Of a DNA stretch of 64,000 nucleotides, positions 655 through 46,309 are shown piece after piece; position 1 is the first letter of the stretch, and each line of letters starts with the position of its first letter. Origin of the DNA: an uncultured Bacilli bacterium (GTDB lineage: Bacteria > Bacillota_I > Bacilli_A > RF39 > UBA660); assembly GCA_934102215.1 (NCBI GenBank), contig CAKOSH010000003.1, forward strand, positions 59,187 through 123,186, read 5' to 3'. The position numbers and the translations under genes are program-made. The notes below the pieces were generated by a model. The model was not told where the DNA came from. It worked only from the letters and a program-made list of their open reading frames with translations, and made no database searches.

Positions 655-1125
655 CTAATTATTAAATATAAATTCAGGAAGTAAAGTTCCTATAAATAAA
701 AGTATTACTAGAACTATCCAGTTAGTTAAAATATTCATAACCTTACTAAATGTATCATTATTATAAACCATCTTGCCATATACATTTTGAAGATTATATT
801 CATTAAGTACTCCATTATCATCTTTAACATATATATTGTATTTGTCTACTTTTTCTACTTTTCCAAGCTTTGTTGTATTTGTATATTTATATACTACATA
901 ATCATTCACATCTATTGCTTTTGTTTCTTTAAGTATAATAATATTATTCTTTTTGATATCTGGTTCATAAATATCACTATCTACTTTAATATACGTATAG
1001 CCTAATACGGTTGGAAACATATCATTATAAACTTTTCTTTTTGTATACATTGATACCATTATTGCAGTGAATGCTACTAAATATATAATTATTAATATTC
1101 TAATTACATTTAATATATTTTTCAT
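655..1125 (-). CDS. Membrane protein with signal-peptidase I (SipW/ER-type) architecture but non-canonical catalytic positions
   Basis: N-terminal TM, about 100 aa extracytoplasmic region, C-terminal TM. Segments align by eye to S26 boxes: SDIYEP vs SGSMEP, NNIIILKE vs GDLILVK, KDDNG vs KGDNN; the nucleophile Ser position reads Ile. Overlaps the secA start by 4 nt (ATGA). Confidence 0.35.
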   Translation of the reverse strand: MKNILNVIRILIIIYLVAFTAIMVSMYTKRKVYNDMFPTVLGYTYIKVDSDIYEPDIKKNNIIILKETKAIDVNDYVVYKYTNTTKLGKVEKVDKYNIYVKDDNGVLNEYNLQNVYGKMVYNNDTFSKVMNILTNWIVLVILLFIGTLLPEFIFNN

Positions 1126-3668
1126 TTTAAATACATTCCGCCTTCCAATTTAGGATCTATTGTTTTACCAAATTTTAAATCAGGATTAGTCGCATATAAT
1201 AAGAAATCTGCTTGTATTTTCGGATTTAGATTTATAAATTCAGTATTAGCTGCATGTTCATATTCTTTAAATGGATCCATTCCTGATAATGTATAATATG
1301 ATGTTTGTTTCTTTATATCTTCTAATTTATCTAAATGGTCTATCCAATAAGAATCAACTACATTTAACATATTCTTTCTTACTTTTTCATTATTATCTTC
1401 ACGAGATATACTTCCTTTTATTTTTGAAAGTACAAGTGAATTTATTGATTCTCTTAAACTTTCTTTACTTGTAGTATCTAGTCCTTTAGTATCAATTATT
1501 CCATCTAAACTACTACTTATTTCATCAAGTGAACAATTATTTACTAAGTAATCAGTATATGATGGAACTATTCTATCAAATAATGTTTTAACTTCTTTTG
1601 TATCAAGAATCATGTTACGTTGATTATACATTAAATCTTTTTGAGTAGTCATTACTTTACCATATTTTTCACTTGTAATTCTTACTTTTTCTTCAAATCC
1701 TTCTTGTGCTTTTTGACATCTATCTACTAGTTTAATTATATTTTTATTAGTGATTTCTTTGTCTTTATCTTTAACAAGAGAAGATGCTGCATTAAATAGT
1801 TCTTCGCTTCCTCTTGTTTTAACTAAATCATCTTCAAGTGAACTATAATATTTTGTTTTACCTGGTTCTCCTTGTCTACTTGCTCTACCACGAAGTTGAT
1901 AATCAATTCTTTCATTATTATTTCTTGATGTACCAATTACATAAAGACCTCCTAGTTCACGAACTCCTTCGCCTAGTCTTATATTACTACCACGACCAGC
2001 CATATTAGTAGCAACAGTTACTTTACCTTTCATACCAGCATTTTCAATAATACCAGCTTCATTTTCATTGTTAACTGCATTTAATAATTGATGTCTTACT
2101 CCTGCTTCTTCAAGCATTTTACTTATGATAACACTTTCTTCTACACTTGTTGTACCAATTAATACAGGTTGTAATGTTTCATTTGCTTTTAATACTTCTT
2201 CAACAATTGCTTTATATTTAGCATTCTTAGTAAGATAAACGCTTCCCTTTAAATCTTTTCTTATATTAGGAAGTCTACTTGGTACTTCATATGTAGGTAA
2301 ATTATATATCTCATTAAATTCTTCAATATTACTAGTACCTGTCATACCACTTATACCACTTTTATATCTTGACATAAAGTCTGGATATGTACATGTTGCA
2401 GTAGTAACTGTTGGACTTTGTATTGCTACATGATAACTTTTACCTTTTGAAAGTAACTCTTCTTTTGCTTCAAGTGCTTCATGTATACCATGGCCTTTTC
2501 TTCTTCCTGGCATAAGTCTTCCTGTACTTTCATCTATTAAAACTATTTCTTTACGAGGTTTCTTTCCAGGTTTTACTGGAACACTACTAAGGACATAATG
2601 TTCACCATTCTTATAATAGAATTTAGCAAGAATACAATTTTCTACTGCAACAGTGAAATTCATAAGATTTTCTTGTTCTTCTAAACTAAGTTTAGATACA
2701 TCTTTATTACCATATATTTTTCTATATAACTTTTCGCTAAATATTACTCTTTGGCTATCTTGATATAACAAACAATCTTCTTTGAATCTTATTTCTTTTT
2801 TCTTATCAAGCTCATCTTGCGGTTCTATTTTACATGTAAGAGTATCAGCAAGTAACATTGCTTTTCGATACATTTCTCTATTAAGCTCATTTCTTCTTTT
2901 GAATTCTTCTTCTCCAATATCGCTCTTCTTTTGACCTGGATATCCTCCATTTATAATAAGAGGTACAGTCGCATCATCTAAAAGAATACTATCAACTTCA
3001 TCTATAATCGCATAGTTAAATGCTTTACCATAGTTTTTATCATGTTTATCTGGTAAATTAAATACTCTGTCTTCTTTTTTAGTAACAGTATTATCAAGTA
3101 AATAATCAAATGCTAAAGTTTTAGCAGTACCATAAACTATATCACTCTTATATATTTCACGTCTTTCATCACGAGTCATTTTATCATTACCATAAACTAC
3201 TCCTGAAGTAAGTCCTAATAAATCATAAACAGGTTTTGTTTCTTCAAGATCTCTTCCAATAAGATAATCATTTGCTGTAATAACATGCACACCTTTTCCA
3301 TCTAAGGCATTTAAATATGCTTCAATTATTTGAATGAATGTTTTGCCTTCACCAGTTTTAACTTCAGCAATCGCACCTTCCCTCATCGCAAGAGCAGCTT
3401 CAATCTGAACATCATAAAGGCTTACACCAATAGCCCTTTCAGTTGCAAGATAACATAAAGCAGTAGCCTCTATTAATTTATCATCAACAGTACTTTTACC
3501 ACTTCTTATCTCATTCATTAAACTGATGCTTCTTCTTTTAATTTCAGCAGATGTTATATTACTTTCTTTGTAAGAATTAACTCTATTTTTAACTTCTCTA
3601 ACAAGTTCTCTAATTCTTTTTTGATTATTTCTTGTATAACTACCAAATATCTTATCTGTTAAACTCAT
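1122..3668 (-). CDS. secA: Preprotein translocase ATPase SecA (848 aa, lacks C-terminal Cys-rich zinc-finger tail)
   Basis: DEAD-like motor motifs (KTGEGKT, DEVDSILLDD), full-length SecA similarity. C-terminus ends ...KLEGGMYLK without a CxCxSGKKYKxCHG motif. RBS AGGTGA before ATG. Confidence 0.9.
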   Translation of the reverse strand: MSLTDKIFGSYTRNNQKRIRELVREVKNRVNSYKESNITSAEIKRRSISLMNEIRSGKSTVDDKLIEATALCYLATERAIGVSLYDVQIEAALAMREGAIAEVKTGEGKTFIQIIEAYLNALDGKGVHVITANDYLIGRDLEETKPVYDLLGLTSGVVYGNDKMTRDERREIYKSDIVYGTAKTLAFDYLLDNTVTKKEDRVFNLPDKHDKNYGKAFNYAIIDEVDSILLDDATVPLIINGGYPGQKKSDIGEEEFKRRNELNREMYRKAMLLADTLTCKIEPQDELDKKKEIRFKEDCLLYQDSQRVIFSEKLYRKIYGNKDVSKLSLEEQENLMNFTVAVENCILAKFYYKNGEHYVLSSVPVKPGKKPRKEIVLIDESTGRLMPGRRKGHGIHEALEAKEELLSKGKSYHVAIQSPTVTTATCTYPDFMSRYKSGISGMTGTSNIEEFNEIYNLPTYEVPSRLPNIRKDLKGSVYLTKNAKYKAIVEEVLKANETLQPVLIGTTSVEESVIISKMLEEAGVRHQLLNAVNNENEAGIIENAGMKGKVTVATNMAGRGSNIRLGEGVRELGGLYVIGTSRNNNERIDYQLRGRASRQGEPGKTKYYSSLEDDLVKTRGSEELFNAASSLVKDKDKEITNKNIIKLVDRCQKAQEGFEEKVRITSEKYGKVMTTQKDLMYNQRNMILDTKEVKTLFDRIVPSYTDYLVNNCSLDEISSSLDGIIDTKGLDTTSKESLRESINSLVLSKIKGSISREDNNEKVRKNMLNVVDSYWIDHLDKLEDIKKQTSYYTLSGMDPFKEYEHAANTEFINLNPKIQADFLLYATNPDLKFGKTIDPKLEGGMYLK

Positions 3669-3779
3669 ATGATCACCTATTTTCTATATAAATAATATCA
3701 TTTTAAGCAACATTTTTCAATAAAAATTGAATTTTAGTATACAATCATAATGATTGACTGAAATAGAAATTTAAATAAA

Positions 3780-5420
3780 TCAATTAGTTTTTAAAGTAAA
3801 GTATCCAGGGCTACTTGTGCCTCCATCTATACGAGCATATTCTTTATCGATATGATTAGCATCATATTTGGTTCCTGCACCGCCTACTAGGTTTGTACTA
3901 TCTTCAAACATACTAGTACTTTTAGTGGCCTTATTAGTATTAAATTTATCACTAGCATATATTGTTTTTAAATTAGCTGAATTATAAAACATACCACTCA
4001 TATATATTACATTGCTTGTATCAAAATTACTTAAATCTAAAAATGAAACTTGACTTTCTCTAAACATGCTAGTCATATCAGTTACATTTTTTGTATCAAA
4101 ACTGCTTAAATTTATTGTTGTTGCCTTACTTTCCCAAAACATTCCATTCATGTTTGTTACATTGCTTGTATCAAAGCTCCTTAAATCTAGCGTTGTAGCT
4201 CTACTAGCATAAAACATCATTCTCATATTTATTACTTTACTTGTATCAAAATTACTTAAATCTATTAATGTTACTTGACTACTTCCAAACATAAAATTCA
4301 TACTAGTTACATTACTGGTGTTAAAATTGTTTAAATCTAAAGATGAAACTTGGCTACCATAAAACATATAATCCATAGAGGTTACATTGCTAGTATCAAA
4401 ATTGCTTAAATTTAAAGATGCAGCCTGACTCTCATAAAACATTAATTCCATAGTGACTACATTGCTCGTATCAAAACTGCCTAAATCTAATATTGTCGCT
4501 TGGCTTTCTCTAAACATACCACTCATATTTGTTACATTGCTAGTATCAAAACTGCCTAAATCTAATATTGTCGCTTGGCTTTCCCAAAACATACCACTCA
4601 TATTTGTTACATTGCTAGTATCAAAACTGCTTAAATCTATTGTTGCAGCCCGACTTTCTTCAAACATATAACTCATAGACACAATAGGCATATTATTTAT
4701 ATATGTACATAACTTGCTTGTTACTGCATTAGTGCTTACTTCGTTAGTTAATTGAACTCCCCAACCAGTAGTCGCAATATTTTGCCAACCTGACGCACTG
4801 CCTTCTTGCATATATCTATAAGTGTATTGCCCATTTACATACTCTGCACCCTGTGTAAGATCGCCATCATATGTACAATATACAGGATTAATTGATGATT
4901 CATTTAAGCCAAGTTTTCCTTTAAATGCTTTATTTTTGTTATAATTTTGAAGCTTACCTGTATCAATAAATGTTATTTTGATTGTGTATTCTTGTGTATA
5001 ACCGGGTTTTATTGGAACATTTGTTAAAATTTTTCCTTCTTTAACTACTTTTTGCGATACTGAACTACATGTTCCATCTTCTGTGTTACTTGAATTCAAA
5101 TTTTTACATGTTCCTTCAATAACAAGTTCATTATTCGTAATTTCATTTACAAGTTCTTGCCACATAAGATTATAAATTACTTGTTTTGTTCCAGTGTTCT
5201 TTACTGATATTGTTTTAGTTATTGAGTCCCCTGGCATTGCTCCATCAAGTGATACTTCATTATCATCAGTAAATACTAATTCTAAATCACCTGTTGTTAT
5301 CTTGTTATATTTAGCAGTATCGTTTCCAATTATATTAAGCGAAAAAAATGCTAGTGAAACTCCAATTACTGCGAATAGTATTGATATCACTAGCAATATA
5401 TACATTTTCTTATCTTTCAT
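3780..5420 (-). CDS. Secreted protein: TasA/CalY(camelysin)-like N-terminal domain with SipW-cognate-type signal region fused to about 9 DUF285 (Mycoplasma-type, BspA-like) 26-aa repeats
   Basis: N-terminus LAFFSLNIIGNDTAKYNKITTGDLELVFTD..PGDSITKTISVKNTGT resembles TasA/CalY (AFFSD..AGTLDL..PGD..N.GSL). C-terminal half has repeats L(D/N)LSxFDTSNVTNMSGMFxESQ. ORF track starts at GTG (5429); ATG at 5418-5420 with AAGGAAG RBS preferred. Confidence 0.8.
   Translation of the reverse strand: MKDKKMYILLVISILFAVIGVSLAFFSLNIIGNDTAKYNKITTGDLELVFTDDNEVSLDGAMPGDSITKTISVKNTGTKQVIYNLMWQELVNEITNNELVIEGTCKNLNSSNTEDGTCSSVSQKVVKEGKILTNVPIKPGYTQEYTIKITFIDTGKLQNYNKNKAFKGKLGLNESSINPVYCTYDGDLTQGAEYVNGQYTYRYMQEGSASGWQNIATTGWGVQLTNEVSTNAVTSKLCTYINNMPIVSMSYMFEESRAATIDLSSFDTSNVTNMSGMFWESQATILDLGSFDTSNVTNMSGMFRESQATILDLGSFDTSNVVTMELMFYESQAASLNLSNFDTSNVTSMDYMFYGSQVSSLDLNNFNTSNVTSMNFMFGSSQVTLIDLSNFDTSKVINMRMMFYASRATTLDLRSFDTSNVTNMNGMFWESKATTINLSSFDTKNVTDMTSMFRESQVSFLDLSNFDTSNVIYMSGMFYNSANLKTIYASDKFNTNKATKSTSMFEDSTNLVGGAGTKYDANHIDKEYARIDGGTSSPGYFTLKTN
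3930..4640 (-). repeat. Array of about nine 78-bp (26-codon) tandem repeats encoding DUF285 units; two adjacent units nearly identical at DNA level
   Basis: Near-identical 78-bp units around 4489-4566 and 4567-4644. The spurious plus-strand ORF 4453..4671 shows the same periodicity (LLVSKLPKSNIVAWLS x3). Confidence 0.8.
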
Positions 5421-5442
5421 AATGATCACACTTCCTTATCTT

Positions 5443-5482
5443 ATGATCATTATAGCAAATATTACCCCCCCCGCAAGCAAAC
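5443..5482 (-). promoter_or_regulatory. Conserved promoter cassette with G8 homopolymer in spacer (minus strand: TTGCTTGC-GGGGGGGG-TAATATT-TGCTATAAT)
   Basis: Extended -10 TGCTATAAT at 5449-5457, poly-C (plus strand) 5465-5472, TTGCTT -35-like box immediately upstream. Same cassette found upstream of two paralogous genes. Confidence 0.6.
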
Positions 5483-5499
5483 ATTTGTTCTTGTTTACC

Positions 5500-6438
5500 T
5501 TAATCTATTCTTCTACCAACAACAACCATTAGTTTTCCTTGGTGTTTTCCAAATAGGCATGTTTGAAGAACTATTATTTTATCATCCTGATTTAATTCTA
5601 CATCTGTCTTATAAATACTTCTATTTTTTAATCTATTGAAATGTTTTAACCAATCACTATCTTTTTTATATTTTAATTTCATATGTTCTTCTGTACCCAC
5701 TTTATCAGCAAGAACTATACTAAATATTTCATATTTTAAAGTCTCATTGTCAATCTTTAATTCAATGATTCTATGTTCATCAAAATATTCTTTCTTTAAA
5801 TAACCCTCTAATGTTTTAAATGGTGGATTATATTTTTTATTACTATGATTATGTCCGTATATATTAATCTGTTTACTATCTTTACTAACTCTATAATCCA
5901 TAAATGTACTTCCAATAGCACTTCTCTTTTTACTTAATGAATATTTTAAATAATATTGGTTATCTTTAGTTTAAACTACTGGAGTATATATTTCATCATC
6001 AATACTTAAAATTCCAATAACATCATTATTATTGTATTTTTTCTTTAAATCATTTATTTCTTCTTCTACTGTTTTCTTTGGAACTTCTATATCTGAAGCA
6101 GGTTTAACTAATTTACTTTCATTAATTTCTATTATTGTTTTTTCTTCTTCTTTTCTCTTTTGAATTAACAATACAAAACTAACTACCACTATTATAGATA
6201 AAATAACTATTAATATATTAAATATAAGATTTCTTTTGTTATCTTTTTTAATATCTTTTGAATTAGTTTTCTTTGTTGATTTATTATTTACTTTACTACT
6301 AGAAACTCTCTTTGCTGAACTTGCTTTTGTTTTGTTATTTGTTATCTTCTTTGCTGAAGATACTTTTGCTTTATTACTTGTAGTTTTCCTTAATGTAGTT
6401 ACTTTCTTAGTAGTATTATTCTTTTTATTATTTGTCAA
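5500..6438 (-). pseudogene. srtB: Sortase B (class B sortase) with an in-frame TAA stop at 5971-5973 replacing the Gln of the conserved PVVQGKDNEYY motif
   Basis: ORFs 5971..6438 and 5500..5901 are in the same frame separated only by TAA. Read-through gives ...IYTPVV*TKDNQYYLKYSL..GSTFMDYR..IYGHNH...LQTC...RR, matching SrtB signature blocks (DYPVVQGKDNEYYL, GSIFMDYR, TLxTC, Arg). Confidence 0.75.
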
Positions 6439-6445
6439 TCACACC

Positions 6446-9331
6446 TCACATTTGAAACATGCCATATACTATTAACTGATATGATTCATCCCTTTTTTCT
6501 ACTTTAGCATTAACTTTATATACTTTATTTTTATTAAGTTCAGTAACTTTTAATAAGGCATCACTAAACATTACGGCCTCTATACTTCCATACTCATCAC
6601 TAAATTTCAAGAAACACATATTATCATTATTACGTGTTTTTATCATTCTAGTATCTTCTAAAAATAATATAAGACTTATTACTTTATTATAATATTTAGA
6701 TATATCATCTAATTTAACATAGCCTTCTCTTATATATTTAGTAACAGGATGTCTTGATAAATAGAATCCATAATTATTTATTTCATTATCAATAGTTTCA
6801 ATAGAATCATAATCATCTATATCATTAACTATAGGAGCATTATCCATAACAACACCTAAATCTTTACATAACATAGCATAATTAATTATTTCATCTAATA
6901 TTTCTATTGTAGCTTTCTTATTAATACCAAAACTATCAAAAGCGCCACATAATATTAATGATATAACTACTCTTTTATTAATATTTTTACTATAACATCT
7001 TATCATGAAGTCATTAAATGATTTAAATTCACCTTTACTTCTTTCTCTTAATATATCTTCACTTACTATATTAGATATATTTTTTATTGAATTAAATGGT
7101 AATACAAGATAATTATTATATATTACAAATTCTTTATCACTTCTATTTATATCTACTTTTAAGAAACGTATTCCTAGTTTCTTAGATTCTTCAATATAAT
7201 CTTTTATCTTATCACTAGATATATTCATATTAAGTAAATTTCTCATGAAATATTTAGTATAATTACTCTTTAGATAAGCCATTTGATATGCGACTAATGA
7301 ATACACTACTGAATGTGATTTATTAAATCCATATGAAGAGAACTTTATAATTAAATCATATAATTCATTTCCTATTTTTTCATCATAACCATGTTCTATA
7401 ACACCACTTATAAATTTAGATTTATTTTTCTCTATTACATCTGCTTTCTTTTTAGACATTGCTCTTCTTATAAGGTCTGCTTCTGCATAAGTATATCCAC
7501 CAATTATTCTTAATATTTCAAGTACTTGCTCTTGATAAATAATAATACCATATGTACTTCTAAGTATTGGTTCTAATTCTTTTACTAAGTATGTTACTTT
7601 CTTTTTACCTTCTTTTCTTAATATATATTCCCCTATCATATCTCTAGGACCAGGTCTATATAAAGCAATCGCATCAACTAAAGTATTAAAATTATCTACT
7701 TTAAGTTGTCTTAAGAAATTTTTCATACCACTGCTTTCAAATTGAAATATACCAGTAGTATAAGCATTCTTAAATAGATTCAATGTATTTATATCATTAA
7801 GTGGTATATTATTTAAATCAATATTAATATTATCTTTCTTTATATCATTTACTATATTAGATATAGTATTAAGATTCTTTATAGATAAGAAATCCATCTT
7901 TAGAAGTCCTAAAGATTCAATATATTCCATACTATAACCTGTAAGTATAACATTATTGCTTTTATATAAAGGCATAAAATTATAAAGAGATACATCACTT
8001 ATAACAACACCAGCAGTATGCATACTTGTATTCTTTTTAAGACCACATAATTTATAACAACAATTCACTAAATACTTGATATTATTATTTTTATTTATTA
8101 AATTCATAAATGATTTATTATCTTGAAGTGATATAAAATCTTTCTCATTATTAATAGTTTTACATATATTATCTATAACAATATTCTCATATTTTAAAAC
8201 ACGGCCCATATCTCTTATTATTTGTTTAGGTAACATTGTATTAAATGATATAATTCTAGCAGTCTTATCGTGGCCATATTTATTACTTACATATTCAATT
8301 ACATCATCTCTTTTAGTATTATCAAAATCTATATCTATATCAGGCATAGTAATTCTATCAGGATTTAAAAATCTTTCAAATATAAGATTATACTTTAAAG
8401 GATCTACATTTATTATACCTAAACTATAATTAACTAAAGAAGCAGCACCACTTCCTCTACCAGGACCTACATATATATTATGCTTTTTAGCATATAAAAC
8501 AAAATCATAAACTATTAAGAAATAGTCTACAAAGTTCATCTTTTCTATTACTGATAATTCATACATAAGTCTATTTTTATATATATCAGGTACATTATTA
8601 TTAAGTCTTTTCTCTAGCCCCTTTTTAGCGAGTGCTTTTAAGAAGGATAATGAATTATCATTATATACTGGTATATGTAATTCTTTACTTGGTGGTTCTA
8701 TATCTATGAGACTTGCAAATTCTATTGTTGTATTAGTATCACTTTCACTTATATTTAATCTAAAATTACTATCATATATATTTATTTTATCATCAATAGT
8801 TTTACCTTCATCAATATATTTTAAGTATTTAAAAGTCTCTTTATCTTCTTCATTAAAATATCTTATAAGGTCCATATATACTATATTATCAGTTAATTTT
8901 AATGCTTCTTCTTTTAATTTAGATGTATGGTATTTAATATAAACATTATCAAAATATTTACTTACTAGAGGATAATGTTTTCCATTTGTAACAATTATTA
9001 AATCACTTGAATTATCTTTTATATAATCTATATCAATATTATCTTCTATATTTTTATGAGATACTATTTTAAATAAATTAATAAGTCCATTATAGTTTTT
9101 GGCATACATAAGCATATACATATCATTAACTATTATTTCTGCTCCTATAATAGGTTTTATATTGTTTTTATTACATTCATTAATGAATTCCATTGTTCCA
9201 AACATATTAGGATCTGTTATACCAAGTGCATATATTTCTTTCTTTAATGCAAAAGAAATAAGATCTTTTATTCTTATTAAACTATTCATTAAATCATATT
9301 CAGTTTTTATATTTAGTGGTATATATCTCAT
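6446..9331 (-). CDS. dnaE: DNA polymerase III alpha subunit, DnaE-type (short, about 960 aa form)
   Basis: PHP domain N-terminus, polymerase core motif GPGRGSGAASLVNYSLGI..DIDIDF. Start probably Met5 (GAGGGAAG RBS); ORF track begins 12 nt upstream. Confidence 0.85.
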   Translation of the reverse strand: MRYIPLNIKTEYDLMNSLIRIKDLISFALKKEIYALGITDPNMFGTMEFINECNKNNIKPIIGAEIIVNDMYMLMYAKNYNGLINLFKIVSHKNIEDNIDIDYIKDNSSDLIIVTNGKHYPLVSKYFDNVYIKYHTSKLKEEALKLTDNIVYMDLIRYFNEEDKETFKYLKYIDEGKTIDDKINIYDSNFRLNISESDTNTTIEFASLIDIEPPSKELHIPVYNDNSLSFLKALAKKGLEKRLNNNVPDIYKNRLMYELSVIEKMNFVDYFLIVYDFVLYAKKHNIYVGPGRGSGAASLVNYSLGIINVDPLKYNLIFERFLNPDRITMPDIDIDFDNTKRDDVIEYVSNKYGHDKTARIISFNTMLPKQIIRDMGRVLKYENIVIDNICKTINNEKDFISLQDNKSFMNLINKNNNIKYLVNCCYKLCGLKKNTSMHTAGVVISDVSLYNFMPLYKSNNVILTGYSMEYIESLGLLKMDFLSIKNLNTISNIVNDIKKDNINIDLNNIPLNDINTLNLFKNAYTTGIFQFESSGMKNFLRQLKVDNFNTLVDAIALYRPGPRDMIGEYILRKEGKKKVTYLVKELEPILRSTYGIIIYQEQVLEILRIIGGYTYAEADLIRRAMSKKKADVIEKNKSKFISGVIEHGYDEKIGNELYDLIIKFSSYGFNKSHSVVYSLVAYQMAYLKSNYTKYFMRNLLNMNISSDKIKDYIEESKKLGIRFLKVDINRSDKEFVIYNNYLVLPFNSIKNISNIVSEDILRERSKGEFKSFNDFMIRCYSKNINKRVVISLILCGAFDSFGINKKATIEILDEIINYAMLCKDLGVVMDNAPIVNDIDDYDSIETIDNEINNYGFYLSRHPVTKYIREGYVKLDDISKYYNKVISLILFLEDTRMIKTRNNDNMCFLKFSDEYGSIEAVMFSDALLKVTELNKNKVYKVNAKVEKRDESYQLIVYGMFQM

Positions 9332-29668: not shown

Positions 29669-31003
29669 TTAGCCGATGCGGAAAGCTGGCGCAACGCCAC
29701 ATGTAGAATAAGCATCAATATTAGAACCGCCACCATTATTATTCACTTTAAAGAAAGATTTTTCACTGATAGACACAGCCGAACGAAGGCACCATGATGA
29801 AGTACTAGTTCTATTATTTTTTATCGCTCCATTAAAATTAGTTGTAGTTACGCCTAAATTTTTATAGTAATCTAATTGTTTTGTTATATCTCTTGCTTTA
29901 TCATATTTAAATCCAAATTTCTCTGGTTCTGTAACACTAACCAATGGTGAAACTGTTAACTTAGAAATTGATTCATTCATACTATTGGAACTTGATACTA
30001 CATCTGCCCTTACTTCTGCTGTGCTTAATAAATATAATTTATCTGTTGATGTAAAGTTTGTTGTGTCTTCGCTTCCAGGTCCTGATACTACTGTTGTATC
30101 TATTATTGCATTCTTTATTTCACTTGGTATTACATTATATATATCATTATTTACAAATGTTCTCATTGTTGTTGCTGGCCAGCCATCCTTATTCCAACCA
30201 TAATTATATTGTGTTCCATTATATTCTCCACTTGGATTCATATTATGTGTTGTTATGATATTTGCAAATTCTAGTACAAATCCACATGCTGTTTGTGAAA
30301 AACCTGTTGTACTACATTCACTTGGTGTTGAAGTATTTGCTACGCGAAGTGTATGTGTTCCATATGTTCCAAGATTTACTTCTTTTGTACTTCCAACTTT
30401 ATACTCACTTCCATACCCAGCTTTTACATTTGCTATAATTGTTGACCAACTATCAGTTGCAAAATCAGGAGCCTTATATTCTTCAATGCCAAGTACACCA
30501 TTGAATTGTTTACCTTGATTATAATTTTGGTCTGCATTTATTTCTTTAAATAATATTGTAAATGTATATTTATGAGTAATTCCTGATTCTATTGATATTT
30601 TCTTTGCGATTGTCATATCACTAATTGGTGATTGTGATATAGATTCACATGTTCCTTCAACTGTACCTGATGCATTTAATCTTTGACATGTCGCGCTTAA
30701 AACAAGTTCATCATTTGTAATTCCATTTGTTAGTGATTGCCAAATAACATTGTAATATGCATCTAATGTACCATTATTTTTTACTGATACTTCTTTTGTT
30801 GTTGACCATCCTGGTTTTATATATTGTGCATTTATTGCTGGTCCATCAGTATATGTAAGTTTTAGTGTTCCAGCTTCCACTATTACATCTTTTGCATTAT
30901 CATTTCCTTTTACAGCAGTACTAAAGTACGCATAAGAAAGACCTGTTGTTAAAAGCAATAACAATACAAGAAACGTTCCAATTAAAATTTTGTTATCTTT
31001 CAT
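29669..31003 (-). CDS. Secreted protein: TasA/CalY-like N-terminal domain plus Cys/Trp-rich C-terminal domain ending ...GVAPAFRIG (paralog of 10456..11682)
   Basis: LSYAYFSTAVKGNDNAKDVIVEAGTLKLTYTD..KPGWSTTKEVSVKNNGTLD N-domain; C-terminal blocks GFSQTACGFVLEFANIITTHNMN, GWPATTMRTFVNNDIYN, KLYLLSTAEV, QLDYYKNLGVTT shared with 10456..11682. Confidence 0.75.
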   Translation of the reverse strand: MKDNKILIGTFLVLLLLLTTGLSYAYFSTAVKGNDNAKDVIVEAGTLKLTYTDGPAINAQYIKPGWSTTKEVSVKNNGTLDAYYNVIWQSLTNGITNDELVLSATCQRLNASGTVEGTCESISQSPISDMTIAKKISIESGITHKYTFTILFKEINADQNYNQGKQFNGVLGIEEYKAPDFATDSWSTIIANVKAGYGSEYKVGSTKEVNLGTYGTHTLRVANTSTPSECSTTGFSQTACGFVLEFANIITTHNMNPSGEYNGTQYNYGWNKDGWPATTMRTFVNNDIYNVIPSEIKNAIIDTTVVSGPGSEDTTNFTSTDKLYLLSTAEVRADVVSSSNSMNESISKLTVSPLVSVTEPEKFGFKYDKARDITKQLDYYKNLGVTTTNFNGAIKNNRTSTSSWCLRSAVSISEKSFFKVNNNGGGSNIDAYSTCGVAPAFRIG

Positions 31004-31024
31004 AATTTATCTACCCTACTTTCA

Positions 31025-31064
31025 TTAGTAAGTATAGCATAAATTACCCCCCCGCAAGCGAACA
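31025..31064 (-). promoter_or_regulatory. Conserved promoter cassette with G7 tract (TCGCTTGC-GGGGGGG-TAATTTA-TGCTATACT)
   Basis: Extended -10 TGCTATACT at 31031-31039, poly-C 31047-31053 (plus strand); third copy of the cassette. Confidence 0.6.
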
Positions 31065-31312
31065 TTTATTCTTGTTTAAGAAGCAAAATGTAGATTGACG
31101 ATTTATTTGATCCAACTTTTGACGAATTATTTGGACCAATTCAAATATTTTTAACTTTTTGAAATTTTCTTAAAATTTAATTTTGCATATTAAAACATGG
31201 TTGATAATTGAATTTTTGCCTAGAGAATAATTAAATTTTCACTATGAAAAACTACCTCAAAATTGAATTTTACCTATTTGCATTGCATTTTTATATATGC
31301 TATTCTACATTC

Positions 31313-31550
31313 GAAGTGCCTGAGGCTAGGTGTCACCAATATTAATTTTCTGTATCCAGAGATCTAATGGAGGTGATGTTATATGAGTAAGAAAGATTTC
31401 TTAATAAGTTTTTTACTTGTTATTATATTCGTATTACTTTTTATAATAATTTCTTTAATTTTCGCAAATTAAAAAAATCACCTAACTCACTTTGTAGTTA
31501 GGTAAACATATTACATGTGATACCTAGCCTACAGGGGTCAGGTGCTTCAC
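31313..31550 (+). ncRNA. Structured mRNA: 5' element (31313-31337) and 3' element (31517-31550) form a roughly 24-bp long-range duplex around the small ORF; internal hairpin 31479-31501
   Basis: 5' GAAGUGCCUGA pairs with 3' UCAGGUGCUUC (11 bp, two G-U); 5' GGCUAGGUGUCAC pairs with 3' GUGAUACCUAGCC (13 bp). Candidate promoter TTGCAT-N17-TATTCT at about 31279-31306. Confidence 0.5.
31383..31472 (+). CDS. 29-aa hydrophobic peptide MSKKDFLISFLLVIIFVLLFIIISLIFAN (candidate type I toxin)
   Basis: Strong RBS GGAGGTG 7 nt before ATG; single TM helix with short charged N-terminus; flanked by complementary GC-rich 5' and 3' UTR elements. Confidence 0.5.
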   Translation: MSKKDFLISFLLVIIFVLLFIIISLIFAN

Positions 31551-31589
31551 TAATAATAGTTTATCATATTTAAATATACATTGTAAATA

Positions 31590-31622
31590 ATTTATCAAAA
31601 GAAAAAGCACTATTTCTAGTGC
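31590..31622 (-). terminator. Rho-independent terminator after the 31628..32035 gene (GCACTA-GAAA-TAGTGC plus TTTTTCTTTT)
   Basis: 6-bp stem, 4-nt loop, U-tract on minus strand. Confidence 0.55.
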
Positions 31623-31627
31623 AATAT

Positions 31628-32035
31628 TTATGCTATACAAGACATATCAAACTTAAATATTGTTCCTATTAAATTTAATATCAATGGGAAGAAGCAAATT
31701 ACTGCTAAAATGATTGCCATCTTTACACATTTATCAAATGCTTTTTTAAGAGCACTTGCATCTTTTGATATTACCGCTGGTATTAATTGTAACATACCAT
31801 TTACTATTGCAATAATAGCGCCACCTATTCTAACTACTGTAATGCCAAGTTTAACAAATTCAGTAAGTGTTGGACCAAGTATATCACTACAACTTTGCTC
31901 TCCATCTCCAAAACCAGTTATTGTTGGTGAATCAGCAAGTATATAAATATTGTTATTTGCTTTTTCTATACTGCTTGCATTTACATTTAAAATTCCTATT
32001 AAAAATAATAATATTATCATTAAAACTTTCTTCAT
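31628..32035 (-). CDS. Small secreted/membrane protein (signal peptide plus two hydrophobic helices)
   Basis: MKKVLMIILLFLIGILNVNASS signal; two hydrophobic segments; topology reminiscent of VirB2/TrbC-type pilins or bacteriocin-associated membrane proteins; no sequence match claimed. Confidence 0.35.
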   Translation of the reverse strand: MKKVLMIILLFLIGILNVNASSIEKANNNIYILADSPTITGFGDGEQSCSDILGPTLTEFVKLGITVVRIGGAIIAIVNGMLQLIPAVISKDASALKKAFDKCVKMAIILAVICFFPLILNLIGTIFKFDMSCIA

Positions 32036-46203: not shown

Positions 46204-46309
46204 TTTATTCCTCCTTCAATAAGACTCGCTTTTAAGGCAAGAATTTTTCATCTTTTAAATAACCTTTTCAATGCGGTTGTAGAGAAAGATTTCTACAAAC
46301 ATGGATATT
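46204..46309 (-). promoter_or_regulatory. rplU leader region with sigma-A-like promoter TTGACA-N17-TAAAAT and a stem-loop (possible L21 leader)
   Basis: Minus strand TTGACAGAACCACGTATTTATGCTAAAAT followed by inverted repeat TGTAGAGAAAGATTTCTACA. Confidence 0.4.

Follow-up and report, generated by a model that had tools for sequence, protein, structure and literature searches.

Type I toxin-antitoxin systems are hard to find, their toxins being tiny, fast-evolving and skipped by gene callers. One Gram-positive class has its antisense RNA positioned at the 3′ side of the toxin message (PMC8594479). The txpA/RatA, bsrG/SR4, bsrE/SR5 and yonT/SR6 pairs of Bacillus subtilis have convergent peptide and antisense genes that overlap at their 3′ ends (PMC8594479, PMC3531473), and RNase III silences txpA and yonT via such duplexes (PMC3531473). 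In hok/Sok of plasmid R1 and aapA1/IsoA1 of Helicobacter pylori a long-distance 5′–3′ interaction closes the toxin mRNA, and the full-length hok and aapA1 messages adopt a compact, stable and poorly translated fold (PMC8594479 and works cited there; PMC6733600). Here we describe a locus with likenesses to both arrangements in a 64,000-nucleotide stretch of DNA (the window) from an uncultured Bacilli bacterium (contig CAKOSH010000003.1, positions 59,187 to 123,186 of the forward strand). A gap of 624 bases between two minus-strand genes holds a plus-strand open reading frame (ORF) for a 29-residue hydrophobic peptide, a long-range helix that joins sequences on either side of this ORF, and a predicted antisense RNA gene that converges on it. 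We read the locus as probably a chromosomal type I toxin-antitoxin-like module of the Gram-positive 3′-overlap kind that exists in several copies, the one here being intact; in the best reading it represents a new family within a known kind of system and belongs to none of the families compared below.

The module recurs as a unit of ~430–500 base pairs (bp). Similarity between copies at different sites begins ~120–190 nucleotides (nt) upstream of the sense promoter and ends just beyond the −35 hexamer of the antisense promoter, which in the window places the whole unit from ~31160 (~31095 in some copies) to ~31590. A sequence-only reading of this DNA had placed correctly every element that it described and had set limits of 31271–31560, which are too small. 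A metagenome scan with the 20-mer TCAGGTGCTTCACTAAYAAT, taken from the most conserved stretch, returned 23 loci, and related gut metagenomes and metagenome-assembled genomes (MAGs) provided 14 distinct full-length copies, 12 of which were aligned (alignment A3; L001–L069 denote the related loci retrieved for comparison). Two contigs carry two intact copies each together with a remnant on the recU side (ERZ857965.6-NODE-6, where the copies are at different places, and OBKS01000001.1), and OPFI01000001.1 carries one intact copy and a remnant. A search of 617 kb of sequence with an nhmmer profile of the family detected no further diverged copies, and one copy in the window.

Intact copies occupy unrelated housekeeping intergenic regions: between a YqfD-like gene and truA, between the gene for a ComN-like post-transcriptional regulator and an M16 peptidase gene, beside an anaerobic ribonucleotide reductase activase gene, and beside a gene for a DUF285 protein. 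The neighbour genes of the contexts examined include no transposase or other mobile-element gene. In all eight contexts with both flanks known, the peptide gene opposes both flanking genes, and therefore read-through from these genes can add antisense RNA but never toxin mRNA. A tie to the 135-residue or 444-residue protein gene adjacent in the window was considered and rejected, as other copies have entirely different neighbors.

The site occupied in the window, between rpsB and recU, was compared among 35 RecU loci. The neighbouring RecU shares 97% identity with its counterpart in ‘Clostridium sp. CAG:524’, further relatives are MAGs that carry the labels Bacilli, Tenericutes or Mycoplasmatota, and the host is a low-GC gut bacterium. 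Contigs of the same species (L001–L003) are 100% identical across the gap and hence uninformative. The whole element is present at 77% identity in L016; only a remnant with an internal deletion is left in L012 (CAG:524); and in L013–L015 rpsB lies directly beside recU with the module absent. L045 (CP091739.1) keeps the ORF and the 3′ half, a deletion having removed the promoter, the 5′ arm of the helix and the ribosome-binding site (RBS); in the same locus (2100–5550) each of tsf, rpsB and recU is broken up into short reading frames, which suggests assembly indel errors, and the truncated copy is therefore to be read cautiously. Conservation in relatives had been named beforehand, in the sequence-only reading, as one of the tests that could refute a toxin-antitoxin module, and both the ORF and the 5′–3′ pairing are kept across copies.

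The ORF that encodes the putative toxin (31383–31472, plus strand; MSKKDFLISFLLVIIFVLLFIIISLIFAN) is intact in all full copies. A polar N-terminus, MSKKD, is followed by ~23 hydrophobic residues that make up one stretch of transmembrane length, so that the peptide matches type I toxins in size and hydrophobicity (<60 residues, a predicted transmembrane segment and a short mRNA). The Shine-Dalgarno sequence GGAGGTGA (31369–31376) stands 6 nt upstream of the ATG, and the small RBS-led hydrophobic ORF first picked out in the sequence-only reading is both present and conserved in relatives: every intact full-length copy has an RBS (GGAGGTG, GGAGATG or GGAAGGTG) 6–7 nt upstream of its ATG, and only the 5′-truncated L045 is without one. 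The ATG and the start MSKKD(F/L)L are kept in all full copies, whose ORFs encode 29–33 residues. Two indels occur within the ORF, of 12 nt in L052 and 3 nt in L058, and both are in frame, unlike the indels of arbitrary length in the 5′ untranslated region (UTR) and 3′ linker of the same alignment. Variable sites are distributed 12/5/12 over codon positions 1/2/3, with second positions varying least, a split that is not significant alone, and the substitutions in the peptide exchange one hydrophobic residue for another. Taken together, the codon statistics and the conserved translation signals favour a translated peptide. The peptide gene has been called on none of the contigs examined. If toxic, the peptide would be a very short membrane-active toxin; its 29 residues compare with ~38–59 in the B. 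subtilis group, and it does not have the charged C-terminus found there.

The alternative that survives best, though we consider it unlikely, is a small membrane protein with an ordinary, non-toxic role, such as modulating a transporter or sensor or serving as one of its subunits, whose expression is tuned by a cis-antisense RNA and the helix. Many bacterial membrane peptides of 20–40 residues are regulators rather than toxins, and the conservation of the ORF, the RBS and the RNA elements needs no toxicity. Such a role would also suit a peptide whose C-terminus is without the charged tail reported for many type I toxins (PMC5961336). Against it stand the distribution and the setting of the module: up to two intact copies are found on one contig, at unrelated sites and with no common partner gene; at a single locus in close relatives the module is present, absent or decayed; and it is always a stand-alone unit that opposes its neighbors. 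Copy number, patchiness and stand-alone orientation are the habits of selfish or addictive modules and not of a housekeeping subunit, and chromosomal type I loci are likewise multi-copy, patchy and sometimes decayed.

On the minus strand, we predict an antisense RNA gene with its own promoter and terminator, whose product of ~80 nt (31471–31551) is the putative antitoxin. Transcription would start at about A31551/G31550, 2–3 nt beyond the 3′ arm of the helix, and end in the U-run 31477–31471, overlapping the stop codon of the peptide by no more than 2 nt. The predicted promoter (31558–31587, minus strand) has a −35 hexamer TTTACA (31587–82), an 18-nt spacer, the triplet TGA and a −10 hexamer TAAACT (31563–58), and was listed as TG-extended by the consensus scanner. 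In the 12 aligned copies the hexamers are conserved, the spacer sequence is variable, and the spacing is fixed, with no indels; the promoter region is retained even in decayed copies. About 50 nt downstream of it on the minus strand stands a hairpin (31478–31505; 10 pairs, 3 of them G-C) followed by T7. The stem at 31480–31503 is better on the minus strand than on the plus strand, and this strength together with the seven T residues argues for an intrinsic terminator that reads leftwards and ends at the peptide stop codon. The sequence-only reading had offered this internal hairpin as either a terminator or a target of an antitoxin RNA; the hairpin is real and the first role fits, as the terminator of the predicted antisense RNA, while the second does not. 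Across copies its closing pair is A-U in nine, G-U in one and G-C in one, the G-U being a valid pair on the minus strand only; in L058 the stem has a compensatory change. Of the 14 alignment columns in the linker that separates the terminator from the 3′ arm, 13 are variable, so the conservation is specific to the elements themselves.

The predicted geometry of promoter and terminator matches the convergent genes and 3′ overlap of the B. subtilis pairs, with an overlap of ~80 nt that is confined to the 3′ UTR. The antisense RNA matches the mRNA 3′ UTR with perfect complementarity, the entire 3′ arm included (duplex −149 kcal/mol), and as in txpA/RatA and bsrG/SR4 it is the overlap itself that would be used for pairing. 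An extended perfect duplex is possible, like the one that in txpA/RatA is the RNase III substrate, where the overlap alone is ~120 nt (PMC3531473). The antisense RNA here differs from those of the B. subtilis group in being much shorter, in overlapping only the 3′ UTR and stop codon and not the coding region, and in being directed at the 3′ strand of a helix closing the mRNA 5′ end. The fst/RNA II (par, pAD1) and sprA1/SprA1as systems resemble the locus in being Gram-positive, with a 3′-sided antisense RNA that leaves the ORF uncovered, but in them the functional interaction is with the 5′ UTR or translation start, beyond the overlap (PMC8594479). In the present locus, the predicted antisense RNA pairs with the mRNA 5′ region (31313–31400) at −28.3 kcal/mol against a shuffled mean of −28.0 kcal/mol, that is, with no above-chance complementarity, and an Fst-like interaction with the translation start was dropped as unsupported. 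Of the likeness to hok, fst, txpA and bsrG suggested from sequence, the 3′-overlap layout of txpA/RatA and bsrG/SR4 stands, whereas a hok- or fst-type layout does not.

We regard it as improbable that there is no separate antisense RNA, the hairpin being a back-up terminator of the convergent neighbor and antisense transcription mere read-through. Read-through is plausible, since wherever both flanks are known the module is followed at a short distance by the end of a minus-strand gene, and the antisense promoter is only a consensus match. Yet the hairpin, the U-run and the TTTACA/TGATAAACT hexamers accompany the module at every site, in fixed spacing while the spacer and linker around them vary, and in the window the neighboring gene has a terminator of its own at 31622–31607. 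Read-through transcription would, moreover, supplement a dedicated antisense RNA and not replace it.

The third element is the helix. Its 5′ arm (31313–31336, plus strand) consists of an outer strand GAAGTGCCTGA (31313–31323) and an inner strand GGCTAGGTGTCAC (31324–31336), and its 3′ arm (31517–31548, plus strand) of an inner strand GTGATACCTAGCC (31517–31529), a bulge TACAGGGG (31530–37) and an outer strand TCAGGTGCTTC (31538–48). The 24 pairs, 11 + 13 around the 8-nt bulge and three of them G-U, agree in full with the complementarity between two GC-rich flanking segments that was claimed at the outset. The interval 31305–31560 (plus strand) folds with a minimum free energy of −74.6 kcal/mol, compared with −45.9 ± 4.6 kcal/mol for shuffled sequences (z = −6.2). 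The duplex of the arms comes to −40.0 kcal/mol, and in a scan of the whole window the best unrelated pair of the same geometry in 64 kb reached −19.9 kcal/mol; the 5′-arm 25-mer has a single occurrence in the window.

In the 12 aligned copies, 99–100% of cells are paired at the 24 helix pairs, compared with 24–42% in a control in which the partner strand was slid by 1–3 columns, and RNAalifold recovers the same helix without prior input. Seven pairs vary on one side only, always by a switch from G-U to Watson–Crick, and two vary on both sides, from T-A to C-G, in L016 and L058. The covariance check proposed in the sequence-only reading thus yielded strand-specific G-U/Watson–Crick switches as well as compensatory pairs. 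The minus strand of the interval folds at −63.7 kcal/mol, 11 kcal/mol worse than the plus strand, because the wobble pairs turn into A-C mismatches there. The substitutions of L016 and L058 keep the mRNA helix but break pairs in the predicted 5′ stem-loop of the antisense RNA, and hence the mRNA helix is the structure that is under selection. The long-range helix is, as these changes argue, an RNA structure of the plus strand.

A predicted sense promoter (31278–31306, plus strand) immediately precedes the 5′ arm, with a −35 hexamer TTGCAT (31278–83), a 17-nt spacer carrying TG at 31298–99 (extended −10) and a −10 hexamer TATTCT (31301–06). It has four of six matches in each hexamer and was omitted by the simple promoter scanner, whose cut-off was 9/12. 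Conservation in the alignment extends to the −35 hexamer, the TG and TAYTYT but not to the spacer, and there are no indels; the plausible promoter noted earlier before the 5′ arm is upheld as a prediction. The predicted +1, at about G31313, is the first base of the 5′ arm, so that the 5′ end of the mRNA would be buried in the helix.

The likeness to hok/Sok and aapA1/IsoA1 thus lies in a long-distance 5′–3′ interaction that would close the toxin mRNA. The differences are several: activation of the hok and aapA1 messages needs trimming of the 3′ end, and their antisense RNAs bind the 5′ region, whereas the one predicted here would bind the 3′ partner strand of the helix; this locus has no leader ORF; and hok and aapA1 belong to Gram-negative families with no sequence relationship to it.

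The least likely alternative, a non-coding interspersed repeat (of REP/BOX/RUP or MITE-like kind, or a portable promoter/terminator cassette) whose terminal inverted repeats only resemble an RNA helix and whose ORF is incidental, draws on the multi-copy, intergenic unit of ~430–500 bp, its inverted repeats and AT-rich palindromes, three contigs that break inside it (L047, L051 and L065) and one copy that looks recombinant (L060). Against it, the paired arms are internal, the unit extending ~150 bp further left and ~40 bp further right, every mismatch or substitution in the arms is of a sort that only plus-strand RNA tolerates, the ORF keeps its ATG, RBS, frame and hydrophobicity while UTR and linker vary freely with indels of any length, and no mobile-element genes were seen beside the copies. 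All three alternatives are less likely than the type I reading, of which every sequence-level prediction open to testing was borne out.

Upstream of the sense promoter are four 13-bp palindromes of the form AAAATT-N-AATTTT (31172–84, 31204–16, 31227–39 and 31259–71; no strand assigned), centred at 31178, 31210, 31233 and 31265 and thus spaced by 32, 23 and 32 bp, the fourth ending 7 nt before the −35 hexamer. All four are kept in nine of nine aligned upstream regions, including those of the diverged L016 and L058, with variation at the centre base. They look like operator sites for a regulator, or like an UP-element or curved-DNA array.

The type I reading can be extended to a mechanism, of which we infer the production of both RNAs, the toxicity of the peptide and every step after antisense binding; computation and comparison show the ORF, both helices and their strand specificity, the conservation of the terminator and of the two promoters, and the copy number. 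An mRNA starting at ~31313 on the plus strand would encode the 29-residue, single-transmembrane peptide, and its first 24 nt would pair with 31517–31548 to close the message in a ring-like fold. In this closed fold, the RBS and AUG are predicted to be mostly paired (probability of the RBS being unpaired 0.08–0.33), so that, by prediction, the mRNA would show the restrained translation of type I systems and, like the messages of the txpA/bsrG group, would be highly structured with a paired RBS. In Firmicutes a buried 5′ end is expected to protect against 5′-end-dependent decay of the RNase J1 type, and a helix involving the 5′ end protects fst RNA from degradation. The ~80-nt antisense RNA, made from its own extended −10 promoter, would pair perfectly with the 3′ UTR, and the ~80-bp duplex may be a substrate for decay of the RNase III type, as in txpA/RatA and bsrG/SR4. 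The first ~34 nt of the antisense RNA are a perfected version of the 5′ arm, which is itself an imperfect, G-U-containing copy of the antisense 5′ end, and binding must therefore displace that arm from the helix. Displacement would expose the mRNA 5′ end to 5′-end-dependent nucleases. It would also free the tail of the arm, UCACC (31333–37), to pair with the complementary GGUGA of the RBS, a pairing that arises in constrained folds with the 3′ UTR blocked. Translational gating is nonetheless the weakest step of this mechanism and is weakly supported. Antisense RNA competing with the mRNA’s own 5′ end is what we propose as the unusual design feature of the module.

More tentatively still, the module may be a single integrated device in which the antisense RNA acts as a perfected mimic of the mRNA 5′ end and springs the clamp in one binding event, producing an RNase III substrate, exposing the 5′ end and releasing the anti-Shine-Dalgarno tail; we hold this to be possible but doubtful as a whole. 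The four palindromes would then subject the toxin promoter to a DNA-binding regulator of its own, and the orientation against neighboring genes would be a built-in safeguard, any read-through yielding extra antitoxin. If true, this combination of mimic, clamp, regulator and orientation would amount to a type I design that has been described in no characterised family. We know of no described type I system in CAG:524-like, Mycoplasmatota-related gut Bacilli, and a new family in these uncultured small-genome bacteria would widen the known range of type I modules. The locus would also offer a sequence-defined test case of ~430 bases for how a 5′–3′ mRNA clamp and a 3′-directed antisense RNA cooperate.

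Several observations weigh against the type I reading or narrow it. Both RNAs are predictions from sequence. The coding statistics are modest, with nonsynonymous codon changes outnumbering synonymous ones. Type I toxins have typically been described with charged residues at the C-terminus (PMC5961336), and the charges of this peptide (KKD) are N-terminal, its C-terminus being uncharged. The diversity sampled is limited, most copies being close to that of the window, with L016 (~77%) and L058 the diverged ones; the outer 3′ arm was, in addition, fixed by the pattern used in the metagenome search, so two-sided changes there are invisible. For the gating step, RBS accessibility in the window copy is 0.33 in the closed fold and 0.29 with the 3′ UTR blocked; that such a block clearly closes the RBS was rejected, the effect being small and inconsistent between copies. 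Finally, no conserved sense-strand terminator follows the 3′ arm across copies. The helix was originally said to join the two ends of the mRNA: it does join 5′ and 3′ regions, but because of the missing terminator the 3′ arm cannot be demonstrated to be the 3′ end of the primary transcript.

Sense termination seems to depend on downstream sequence, and the 3′ arm may become a 3′ end only after exonucleolytic trimming. The nearest candidate terminator of the sense mRNA, and a weak one, is the bidirectional hairpin GCACTATTTCTAGTGC (31607–31622), which lies between an A-run and a T-rich stretch and is the terminator of the convergent minus-strand gene for the 135-residue protein. Versions of this hairpin follow the copies at the truA site (L049, L050 and L052) and the remnant in L012, there with a compensatory change.

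Sequence searches placed neither the peptide nor the RNAs in a described family. Rfam, run at gathering thresholds on the window and at E ≤ 10 on 31000–31700, gave only chance-level matches for the module; the only family above the gathering threshold in the window is the ribosomal protein L21 leader (RF00559, 45.3 bits, 46212–46288, minus strand). Searches of Pfam, NCBIfam and PHROGs with three variants of the peptide gave nothing relevant: the best Pfam E-value was 0.37, and no toxin family appeared in Pfam or NCBIfam even at E ≤ 10. The peptide accordingly falls outside every family to which the sequence-only reading had likened it, it is not detectably an Fst-family toxin, with no Pfam family match, and across Rfam, Pfam, NCBIfam and PHROGs neither peptide nor RNA shows sequence or profile similarity to the txpA/bsrG group. 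A blastn search of the element gave only AT-rich noise in plasmids and no match in phages, and tblastn of the peptide gave no match in plasmids. The 30-residue translation, with one extra upstream codon, had 0 phmmer matches among 1.84 billion protein representatives, and an exact look-up found the peptide absent from the protein collection. In viral contigs, a 15-mer of the 5′ arm had six chance matches, none with the second arm, and the 3′-arm pattern had none. A literature search for the peptide motif found no paper.

Among gut Firmicutes, the closest parallels are CD2517.1/RCd8 and other systems of Clostridioides difficile, which likewise have convergent overlapping transcripts and short antisense RNAs (PMC5961336). 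These also show abundant antisense RNAs, structured mRNAs with a sequestered RBS and several paralogous copies per genome (PMC5961336). Their toxins have 50–53 residues and a lysine-rich C-terminus, and their loci lie beside CRISPR arrays or in prophages, whereas the module described here has no sequence similarity to them and no CRISPR or prophage context. The B. subtilis loci are similarly located in prophages, in contrast to the housekeeping intergenic regions that hold the copies described here.

In the window, the left neighbor of the module is a Peptidase_M73/DUF6273 protein of 444 residues (29669–31003, minus strand) and the right neighbor a membrane protein of 135 residues (31628–32035, minus strand), which has a signal peptide and no family match. 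The rpsB–recU interval (29669–32035 in the window, ~2000–5000 in L012–L029) is a variable spot in this lineage, and relatives have there the gene for the 444-residue Peptidase_M73/DUF6273 surface protein, the 135-residue protein gene, both or neither.

Two direct copies of TTGACGAnTTATTTGRnCCAA (31095–31139, plus strand), found by a repeat search, form an optional left extension that is common to the copies L059, L061 and L069 and not found in L049, L052, L055 and L058. A single further exact AAATTNAATTTT box is found in the 64 kb, in an intergenic region at 3722–3735 and ~55–65 nt upstream of the start of a minus-strand gene for an 848-residue protein (1122–3668); it could be a second target of the hypothetical regulator of the palindromes or a chance occurrence, with 6 strand-matches against 1.8 expected.

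The repeat breaks metagenome assemblies, the three contigs that end inside the element (L047, L051 and L065) being examples, and it may drive rearrangements in these genomes. At 710–1027 of L060, a left flank and 5′ half of the L055 type (7887–8204) meet a right flank and 3′ half of the L061 type (1642–1958), which points either to a genome rearrangement through recombination between two copies of the module or to a chimera of metagenome assembly.

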